A stretch of 25,858 nt of DNA from a virus. Lineage: Duplodnaviria > Caudoviricetes. How positions within the stretch are numbered: the stretch's first letter is position 1; the number at the start of each line of letters is the position of its first letter. The stretch covers positions 1-25,858 of the IMG/VR virus record IMGVR_UViG_3300029258_002279, one strand, 5' to 3'. Positions 8,423 through 25,686 of the stretch are shown in pieces. The notes under the pieces are model-generated. The model did no database searches, was not told the DNA's origin, and worked only from the letters and a program-made list of their open reading frames with translations. A program made the translations under genes and the position numbers.

Positions 8423-8980
8423 ATGGAAGTAAAAGAAACCGTGAGGCATGTGTCCATAGAGGAAGCAATTGCCGTAATGGCAAAAGACAATATCGATTTT
8501 ATCGAAATGCACAAAGGGTATTTTATGGCAGCAGATCTTCCATTCAGGCCACCGCTTCATATTGGATCCATTATTGTATGGCCGCCTGTCGACATTCACC
8601 CATCTGCTAAAATCGGCGAGGGTGTTGTTATCGGCAGGTACACGAACATATGCGGACCAATAGAAATCGGGGCACACACAAGAATTCAGGGATTCTGTTT
8701 CATCCCTGACAACATTAAAATCGGAGAACGGGTATTCATCGGGCCGAATGTGACATTCACGAATGTCAAACGTCCGAGGATACGTGAGAACGCAATGAAA
8801 ATCAGGGACGGCGTTACCATTGTTGAAAATGATGCCAATATTGGTGCCGGGGTGGTCATCTGCCCCGGCATCAAAATCGGAGCGCGCTCATTAATCGGCG
8901 CAGGCGCAGTCGTCACAAAAGATGTGCCACCGGATACGATCGTAATCGGTTGTCCCGCAACACACTACGGGGGTGTCTAA
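8423..8980 (+). CDS. Hexapeptide-repeat (LbH) acyltransferase, WbpD/QdtC/WxcM-like sugar N-acetyltransferase
   Basis: IHPSAKIGEGVVIG, IGERVFIGPNVTFTN..RPR, IGAGVVICPGIKIG..SLIGAGAVVTKDVPP...GCPA. Start codon uncertain. Confidence 0.85.
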   Translation: MEVKETVRHVSIEEAIAVMAKDNIDFIEMHKGYFMAADLPFRPPLHIGSIIVWPPVDIHPSAKIGEGVVIGRYTNICGPIEIGAHTRIQGFCFIPDNIKIGERVFIGPNVTFTNVKRPRIRENAMKIRDGVTIVENDANIGAGVVICPGIKIGARSLIGAGAVVTKDVPPDTIVIGCPATHYGGV

Positions 8981-9441: not shown

Positions 9442-9737
9442 AATTTTTTGACAACCTGCGAAAGGACGGAATAGAAGATGATCTTCCTGCATACGATGAC
9501 AGGCCAATTCTATATGAAGATTTGTATAAAGACTACATGGCTTTTGTAGAACTTTCAGCACATAGGAATATTGACGGGATGTCGGGGTATATATTTCCAA
9601 TACACTTTTCTGAGATTGAAACGTATATGCGAATCAAACAAATCGAAGATTTGTCCGATCGGAAACACTTCATTGCTCGAATCAAGTTTATGGACAATGT
9701 GTACTGCAAGGCCATGAACGAGAAGAGGAAAAAATGA
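9393..9737 (+). CDS. Tail assembly chaperone gpT-like portion (translated as a G-T fusion, 8980-9737)
   Basis: -1 frame reads KLREVLEWAVKYGEQLEFF...AFVELSAHR..GM....PI.FSEIETY...MDNVY. Includes track ORF 9522-9737. ATGA-coupled to the tape measure gene. Confidence 0.8.
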   Translation, partial: KLREVLEWAVKYGEQLEFFDNLRKDGIEDDLPAYDDRPILYEDLYKDYMAFVELSAHRNIDGMSGYIFPIHFSEIETYMRIKQIEDLSDRKHFIARIKFMDNVYCKAMNEKRKK

Positions 9738-22991: not shown

Positions 22992-23318
22992 ATGAATTCT
23001 TTTGCAAAGATTCTTGGAGTAATTATCTCCTTTGGGGTTATTGCCAGTGCTGTTGCAGGAACGCTATATCATTTCGAAAAAACAAAAGTCGGTATTGAGG
23101 AATATCAGACATTTGTAAAAAACCATAAACAGTATTGTGCATACACGGATATCAGATTCCTTGAGCAATACCGGCGTACACTTCAGCAGCGCATTTGGGA
23201 TCTGCAAAGACGGTATCCGTCTACATACAATCGTCTTCCGGAATATCTGAACTTAATTCAGGAATTGCGCAATGTTGATATGAAAATTAAGGCGTTCTAC
23301 AGCAGGGGAGGCAGGTAA
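22992..23318 (+). CDS. Membrane protein with an N-terminal TM helix (holin/spanin candidate)
   Basis: ATG at 22992 after GGGGGG. ILGVIISFGVIASAVAGTLY. TAATG-coupled to the endolysin. Confidence 0.65.
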   Translation: MNSFAKILGVIISFGVIASAVAGTLYHFEKTKVGIEEYQTFVKNHKQYCAYTDIRFLEQYRRTLQQRIWDLQRRYPSTYNRLPEYLNLIQELRNVDMKIKAFYSRGGR

Positions 23319-23737
23319 TGGATGATATCGAAATTCAGGAGCGAATAAAAAAAGATGAAGGATACCGTCCCTATGTTTACTTTGACACCAAGGGCATCCC
23401 AACCGGCGGATATGGCCATGCATTCCTTCCTCACTCAACAATCCCACACGAAATTGCCGAAATGTTTTTCGAGAGAGATTATGCTGAAGCTGCAAGGCTG
23501 TATGAAGAATTCATAAAGAAAAACGGACTGTTCTATCTCAGCAGCACAAGGCGCGGGGTTATAATCAATATGATTTTCCAAATGGGGTGTGGTGGAGTAT
23601 CAGGGTTTAGGGAAATGATAAAGGCTTTAAAGAAAAAAGACTATGAAAAAGCTGCTGACGAAATGTTGGATTCACAATGGGCAAGGAACCATAAAGCAAG
23701 GTCAGGACGTCTTGCAAAGATGATGCGTGATGGCTGA
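23318..23737 (+). CDS. Endolysin, GH24 T4-lysozyme-like muramidase
   Basis: IKKDEGYR..VY.DT.G.PTGGYGH carries the E-x8-D-x5-T catalytic triad. Also NM.FQMG..GV..F..M and AA.EMLDS.WA...R..RL...MR.G. Confidence 0.92.
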   Translation: MDDIEIQERIKKDEGYRPYVYFDTKGIPTGGYGHAFLPHSTIPHEIAEMFFERDYAEAARLYEEFIKKNGLFYLSSTRRGVIINMIFQMGCGGVSGFREMIKALKKKDYEKAADEMLDSQWARNHKARSGRLAKMMRDG

Positions 23738-25192: not shown

Positions 25193-25378
25193 ATGGAAAA
25201 ACTTAGTTTTTACAAAATCCTATCAGCAATTTCATTAATGATAAATTGGTTCACAGTCGCAATAGCTCCGGACGAAACAGGGAAGGTACGAATTACTTTG
25301 GACGAAATGATCGAGCTTGTTGAGGGGGTGTGCGGGTTAATGGGGGTAAAACCAGAAATTGATATTGGAGACCAATAA
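25193..25378 (+). CDS. Small protein, 61 aa, with a hydrophobic N-terminus
   Basis: SD AAGGGGG. ILSAISLMINWFTVAIA. TAATG-coupled to the next gene. Confidence 0.65.
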   Translation: MEKLSFYKILSAISLMINWFTVAIAPDETGKVRITLDEMIELVEGVCGLMGVKPEIDIGDQ

Positions 25379-25560
25379 TGGCTAAAAAGAAATGGATACA
25401 GGGTGCCATCAAAAATCCGGGAGCTTTGACCAGACAGGCCAAAGCTGCCGGTATGACGGTCGCCCAGTTCTGTGCATCCAGTAGAAAAAAAAGCGCTACC
25501 ACCAAACGCCGCTGAAATCTCTACCGAACTCTGCGCAGGATGCGCAAAAAAGCCCGGTGA
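25378..25560 (+). CDS. Small basic protein with an in-frame TGA at 25513-25515 (candidate selenoprotein, or 45-aa truncated gene)
   Basis: MAKKKWIQGAIKNPGALTRQAKAAGMTVAQFCASSRKKSATTKRR*NLYRTLRRMRKKAR*. SD GGAG and TAATG coupling. Not in the ORF track. Confidence 0.65.
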
Positions 25561-25576
25561 GGCAACCGGGCTTCTT
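25546..25576. terminator. Intrinsic terminator-like hairpin, with the better U-tract on the minus strand
   Basis: AAGCCCGGT-GAGGCA-ACCGGGCTT (25550-25573). A6 run at 25546-25551 on the left; CTT on the right. Confidence 0.7.
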
Positions 25577-25621
25577 CAGAGGAGAATTGGTAACAAGGCA
25601 TTAGTTACCAGTATTTACTGC

Positions 25622-25650
25622 AATTTAACACCACTTCAAAAAAGTGTCAA
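25622..25650 (-). promoter_or_regulatory. Leftward sigma70-type promoter
   Basis: Minus strand TTGACA (25650-25645), N17, TAAATT (25627-25622), with an extended -10 TGn. Confidence 0.6.
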
Positions 25651-25658
25651 GAAATTAC

Positions 25659-25686
25659 TTGACAATTTTTCCCTGTATGATAAATT
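25659..25686 (+). promoter_or_regulatory. Rightward sigma70-type promoter for the next (replication/early) module
   Basis: TTGACA (25659-25664), N16, TAAATT (25681-25686), with an extended -10 TGn. Confidence 0.65.

Follow-up and report, generated by a model that had tools for sequence, protein, structure and literature searches.

The stretch of DNA analysed here, which we call the window, comprises the 25,858 nucleotides of a Caudoviricetes record (IMGVR_UViG_3300029258_002279) and covers that half of a tailed-phage genome which holds the tail and lysis genes. The last gene of its late module, at 25378-25560, was proposed in a preliminary description to run through an in-frame TGA, and we found each part of that reading: the TGA at codon 46, the 14 open codons that follow it and the final TGA at 25558-25560 (Table 1). 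The database annotation of the product is a 45-residue fragment. Purine runs like the GGAG upstream of this gene also precede most of the other family members that have a TGA at the same codon (hereafter TGA members).

Table 1. Features of the selenocysteine candidate gene and its surroundings in the window
Feature	Position	Strand	Remark
Upstream 61-residue gene	25193-25378		stop overlapped by the ATG of the 25378-25560 ORF
Shine-Dalgarno-like GGAG	25367..25370	+	7 nt before the ATG; read from the sequence
Predicted selenocysteine gene, 60-residue basic protein	25378..25560	+	residue 46 is the predicted Sec
Cys32 codon	25471..25473	+	predicted partner of residue 46
In-frame TGA, codon 46	25513..25515	+	conserved Cys column; predicted Sec codon
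Possible weaker lower stem of the predicted SECIS	25522-25559		may extend the 25532-25546 hairpin
Predicted bacterial SECIS, upper stem and G-starting loop	25532..25546	+	6-bp stem; loop of 3 nt, its G at 25538
Second and stronger hairpin, spanning the true stop codon	25550..25573	.	terminator-like; U run on the minus strand

Judging from the translations, five TGA members have the gene flanked by a terminase-like and a portal-sized gene, and three have it as the last gene of the late module. Where the DNA continues, the terminase-adjoining members are followed by a gene of about 500-540 codons, which we read as the portal gene from its translation. The predicted structure of the 25378-25560 protein (pLDDT 79.8) has helices at residues 6-10, 16-23, 28-33 and 40-59, such that residues 32 and 46 fall in the third and fourth of the four. 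We also noted a hexapeptide-repeat acyltransferase gene among the tail genes of the window (8423-8980) and, in a related phage, a sulfotransferase gene in the structural module (L371:3478-4140).

A cysteine pair and a recurrent TGA

A single query with this protein returned 64 homologs, and a profile search gave 5,685 family matches among 8,000 scored; the family amounts to 1,026 clusters at 50% identity. The protein is matched over its full length by phrog_20603 (E 7e-6), and NCBIfam has no match to it above the cut-off. The preliminary description had expected Cys or Ala where the TGA stands, and the residue found there in homologs is indeed Cys, Ala or Ile. Among 386 distinct members without the TGA, 191 have Cys at both columns 32 and 46, 195 have it at neither, and none has it at one only (an earlier regex count gave one Cys32 member with another residue at 46, probably owing to a misplaced anchor). 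The two columns form the top coupled pair of the family (z 8.2), and members lacking these cysteines mostly have Ala/Ala, Lys/Ala, Ile/Ile or Met/Ile in their place. Cys thus occupies column 46 in 49% of the whole family (191/386), just below the 50% Cys-column filter described in PMC1088965, and in 191 of the 191 members of the Cys32 subfamily.

A second coupled pair, Gln20-Arg45 (columns 20 and 45, z 8.1), adjoins the Cys/Sec site. The Cys-free form of the same domain is also found inside charged proteins of 200-770 residues in other phages (L079, L091, L103, L118, L162 and L166, among others), and many of the best 150 cluster matches are long charged proteins of this kind.

TGA stands at column 46 in ten distinct DNA sequences: the window, L001, L127, L223, L264, L332, L346, L350, L364 and L365. 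All ten have Cys32, the residue that had been put forward as an available partner. Their proteins are 40-97% identical to one another (median 55%), and the phages that carry them often share only few genes. After the UGA, each has 11-15 open codons with a conserved last helix, like the members with Cys. A comparison with homologs, as had been recommended, returned both Cys at the column and TGA in divergent phages with continued coding. Since the TGA members are related, they do not represent ten independent events; on a tree from which 80% of the "other" members had been dropped at random, the TGA state requires five changes, and the AU test does not reject a single origin (p 0.113).

A scan selected on Cys32 only yielded 119 loci with 73 distinct proteins, of which 68 have Cys at the column, four have TGA and one is cut off; in none of the 73 does the first stop fall 1-9 codons after the column. 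Scans directed at TGA returned 43 stretches, 11 of them family members with TGA at the column, and mirrored scans for TAA returned 53, none with TAA there. Six stretches with a C directly after the TGA, also obtained by scanning, included no family member; no TGA member was among the best 80 loci of a metagenome scan (6 of 64 parts), and a search of genome contigs gave four family loci, none of them with TGA.

The same column marks the end of many annotated proteins. Ten database representatives with Cys32 (P0002, P0011, P0032, P0039, P0061, P0164, P0165, P0169, P0250 and P0280) end just before column 46; two of the ten match loci read here, and it is for these two that the stop codon itself was seen. 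Among 20 short homologs, the five with Cys32 in the family register all end at the column, and the other 15 end elsewhere, a group in which we counted P0175 and P0180 (Cys near 32, tails unlike the family, ends elsewhere).

Base 25515 had been singled out for a check, and no variant was found there. Four public DNA runs, from sediment and seawater by their records, each gave two contigs over 25452-25575 at a depth of 14-19. In each pair, one contig equals the window and the other differs from it at five letters, none of them within 25513-25515. No RNA record with the stretch was listed, which has no bearing on whether the gene is expressed. The DNA comparison is one of contigs, not raw reads, and covers at most three studies, one of which is possibly the source of the window. 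With TGA kept by two haplotypes in four runs, we rejected a sequencing error at this codon. The TGA is also retained at the column in L001, an IMG/VR variant that is 96% identical; both changes between L001 and the window after the UGA are synonymous, and one of them turns a stem G-C pair into G-U.

The hairpin downstream of the TGA

The preliminary description had reported a hairpin with a G-starting loop 22 nt after the UGA, and this hairpin (25532-25546) is present in the minimum-energy fold. The 45 nt after the window UGA have an energy of -12.9 kcal/mol. Compared with dinucleotide shuffles the hairpin alone is not significant (z -1.07 and -1.68); compared with shuffles of synonymous codons, in which the protein is kept, it reaches p 0.007-0.015.

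A SECIS-type scan, also suggested at the outset, separated the TGA members from the rest. Our model asked for a loop of 3-9 nt, a stem of 4-16 bp, a G in the first two loop positions, a distance of 16-37 nt from the UGA and an energy of -7.5 kcal/mol or lower, and is our own reimplementation of constraints given in PMC13188914, not bSECISearch. It was satisfied by 9 of 10 TGA members and, among Cys members, by 1 of 93 (1 of 28 in a set matched for G+C), by 13 of 140 other members and by 28 of 335 ordinary stops, an enrichment with a Fisher p of 4e-11 that is overstated because the members are related (of 278 rows, the 19 that lacked a regex anchor did not enter the Cys and other counts; four of these are TGA members, which were added by hand). 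Synonymous shuffles gave p<=0.05 for 8 of 10 TGA members and 4 of 93 Cys members. The 25532-25546 hairpin is weak when taken alone, but in the family comparison it goes well beyond what chance would produce.

The loop G is present in all ten TGA members, and in eight of them its distance from the UGA is 22 nt. In L264 the distance is 19 nt; here another fold is better than the hairpin once the UGA is taken in, there are competing folds, and the shuffle p is 0.14-0.19. In L127 the loop is at 17 nt, and the energy of -7.3 misses the cut-off. Because the stem registers differ, RNAalifold gave no consensus for the ungapped alignment. When one fixed structure is imposed on all, 67% of cells pair, a value reached by 13 of 500 shuffles. 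Among five members that share one stem register, two third-codon positions pair as G-C, G-U, U-G, C-G and G-C. The related phages G004 (L127/L233) and G002 (L223), with 23 shared ORFs at a median identity of 48%, both have the TGA, and their different hairpin distances (17 versus 22 nt) hint that the SECIS was built separately in each.

G-loop hairpins at SECIS distance also occur in three members with a Cys codon (L012:1483-, L020:1483- and L213), and these could be either chance structures or relics of a lost Sec codon. Other TGA-ended ORFs in these phages have hairpins at about the background rate.

Archaeal and eukaryotic SECIS elements lie in the 3´UTR, behind the gene, and have an archaeal bulge or a eukaryotic quartet. 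The second hairpin, 25550..25573, has a z of -3.73 and no internal bulge, and weak Rfam alignments contain a minus-strand hairpin followed by U6; a simple terminator scan did not flag it, and an Rfam search of the window gave no family over the cut-off. Divergent sigma-70-like promoters with a common palindrome (25645-25664) lie in 25546-25686. The minus-strand promoter (25650-25622) points at this hairpin, and an antisense RNA of roughly 70 nt over the 3´ end of the gene is possible.

How UGA codon 46 may be read

In bacteria, UGA can be decoded as selenocysteine by SelB acting with a SECIS element. We consider this very likely to be what happens at codon 46, through a putative host SelB, and assign it a probability of roughly 0.87; every computational check that the preliminary description had proposed supports the Sec insertion first suggested there. 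In the proposed mechanism, host SelB and Sec-tRNA would bind the hairpin 22 nt downstream and decode the UGA, and the product would be a 60-residue basic protein with Sec46. None of five phage records, one of them complete, has a tRNA-Sec over the cut-off; the host would therefore have to supply it, and the full-length protein would be made only in selenocysteine-using hosts. The closest cultured phages, at <40% identity for helicase and tail tube, give no pointer to a host, and the integrase of G003 is uninformative in this respect.

Alternatively, a near-cognate tRNA (Cys or Trp) might read the UGA, with the hairpin as a general stimulator, yielding little full-length protein, much of the 45-residue product and no selenium. 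Such readthrough would account for the open, conserved tail and, TGA being one change from TGY, for the TGA-only pattern, and it would need neither a special host nor Sec machinery in the phages, where we found none. We nevertheless regard it as improbable: the hairpin fits the geometry expected for SelB, its loop G always present and its spacing mostly kept while stem sequence and register vary, and UGA occurs in 0 of the 141 members whose residue at column 46 is Ala or Ile.

An even smaller chance attaches to the UGA being a true stop, with a 45-residue product or a recent pseudogene and some other role for the hairpin. Truncation would take most of the longest and most confident helix of the predicted model. 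Moreover, the codon always falls at the same column and is always TGA, with no TAA or TAG (TAA in the mirrored scans), while TGA accounts for 108 of 335 ordinary stops; the probability of a TGA-only pattern by chance is 0.003 for five origins. The tails are open and conserved across proteins that are 40-55% identical, which also speaks against a stop, even if TGY to TGA is a single change, the short form is the one called in databases, and the second hairpin and the possible antisense promoter overlap the 3´ end.

As had been noted early on, TGA is an ordinary stop elsewhere in the window, for example in 9522-9737 and in the lysozyme gene (23318-23737), where it comes after a complete domain. 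TGA-ended ORFs abut the next gene, mostly through ATGA overlaps, in 8 of 11 sequences examined, and coding cover under table 11 is already 0.73-0.95 across them; we therefore rejected genome-wide UGA recoding, and since TGA is not sense throughout, these phages do not fall with those that have a recoded stop (tables 4, 15 and 25). The idea that all UGA is sense in phage or host (tables 4 or 25), or that the base is an assembly error, is largely refuted by these observations and by the two haplotypes, even though phages with recoded stop codons have been described (PMC9523058) and reading through TGA raises the coding cover of G003 and L364 by 0.07.

If selenocysteine is inserted, the strict coupling of Cys32 and Cys46 across the family suggests that Sec46 bonds to Cys32, in agreement with the partner role first proposed for the upstream Cys. 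A Cys32-Sec46 selenylsulfide would then probably replace the disulfide or the hydrophobic pair of other members; an alternative to this bridge is a metal site shared between chains.

Known selenoproteins and a possible role in the particle

The family resembles bacterial SECIS/SelB genes as described in PMC13188914: an in-frame UGA falls where homologs have Cys, the UGA forms are scattered among more numerous Cys forms, and a G-loop hairpin follows 16-37 nt downstream. It differs from them in being phage-encoded and in the nature of the protein, which is helical, Lys/Arg-rich and 60 residues long; unlike most selenoproteins, it has neither a CxxU-type motif nor an enzyme fold. BSepDB holds 111 bacterial selenoprotein families (PMC13326102). 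The words phage, virus and viral are absent from the main text of PMC13188914 and PMC13326102, and a term search of the BSepDB supplement (PMC13326102) for phage, virus and capsid was likewise empty.

Known viral selenoproteins are the glutathione peroxidases of poxviruses, homologs of GPx1 in molluscum contagiosum virus and of GPx4 in fowlpox virus (PMC8310308). They share with the phage family a viral location and dependence on the host selenocysteine system, and the fowlpox SECIS also lies in the coding region. However, as described there, the poxvirus genes are captured cellular enzymes with a eukaryotic SECIS, whereas the phage family appears virus-native, with a bacterial-type hairpin. 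For huge phages, three of which have tRNA-Sec genes, possible selenoproteins are suggested only (PMC10747093). Our literature search, of sources other than subscription papers and bioRxiv supplements, found no phage selenoprotein. The 25378-25560 gene very probably encodes a phage selenoprotein, and its family would be a new addition to the selenoproteome.

What the protein does is much less certain than the recoding. Another small basic viral protein, VP2 of the fusellovirus SSV1 (PF25632), offers a comparison: 32 of 65 family members match PF25632 at E<=0.01 (best 2.4e-5), P0064 carries this domain, and an atlas neighbour cluster (score 0.87) is 36% PF25632. For the protein of the window itself the match covers residues 4-19 only, with 14.1 bits against a cut-off of 27. 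VP2 is described as a dispensable DNA-binding protein of the virion, and unrelated viruses of archaea and bacteria have homologs of it (PMC4158269, PMC9608457); unlike VP2, the present family occurs in tailed phages, and the descriptions of VP2 in these sources include no Cys/Sec pair.

Predicted folds gave likenesses that all lie above E 0.001: to A7XXU2 of Thermus phage P74-26 (TM 0.78, E 0.02) and to segments of four proteins from crassviruses that carry the label cargo protein 1 compact domain (TM 0.56-0.69, E 0.19-3). Cargo protein 1 of crAss001 lies inside the capsid (PMC10172136). Solved structures gave no significant match by sequence or by fold. We took a match to 40S protein S30 (E 0.045) as compositional and set aside matches to NikA-like proteins in Pfam and to MbpA/MobA in NCBIfam as weak and under the cut-off. 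Together, the very basic protein, its gene context and the weak likenesses to VP2 and to these folds point to a role inside the particle, on the DNA, and we lean slightly towards a virion DNA-binding role like that of VP2.

A broader model, which we offer tentatively and at somewhat less than even odds, is that of a virus-native, non-enzymatic selenoprotein family, in which phages would repeatedly have replaced Cys46 by Sec in the Cys32-Cys46 bridge of a protein that binds DNA in the virion. In this model the choice of synonymous codons would have created the SECIS hairpins, with three or more stem registers in use, and the selenylsulfide would either stay closed in anoxic hosts or act as a redox latch for DNA release, tying the full-length protein to the selenium status of the host.

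If selenocysteine decoding is correct, phage genomes would join those that use the 21st amino acid, here in a role that is probably structural and non-catalytic, and the gene would provide a sequence marker for phages of selenocysteine-using hosts. It would also mean that gene callers truncate such genes, as the ten database entries that stop at the UGA column would illustrate. With a single 60-residue fold available in Cys/Cys, Cys/Sec and Cys-free forms, the family would be a small, directly testable model for why selenium is preferred to sulfur.

The TGA member L332 has a neighbour of a different kind. Record G003, a complete 108-kb phage with an integrase, encodes an RF-1-domain peptidyl-tRNA hydrolase (L376:252-608, minus strand), which we take to be ArfB-like, and this gene adjoins L332. 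Genes similar to it occur in mycobacteriophages. The same phage encodes a protein with a Cas_VVA1548 domain, putatively CRISPR-associated (L376:5891-6649, minus strand).
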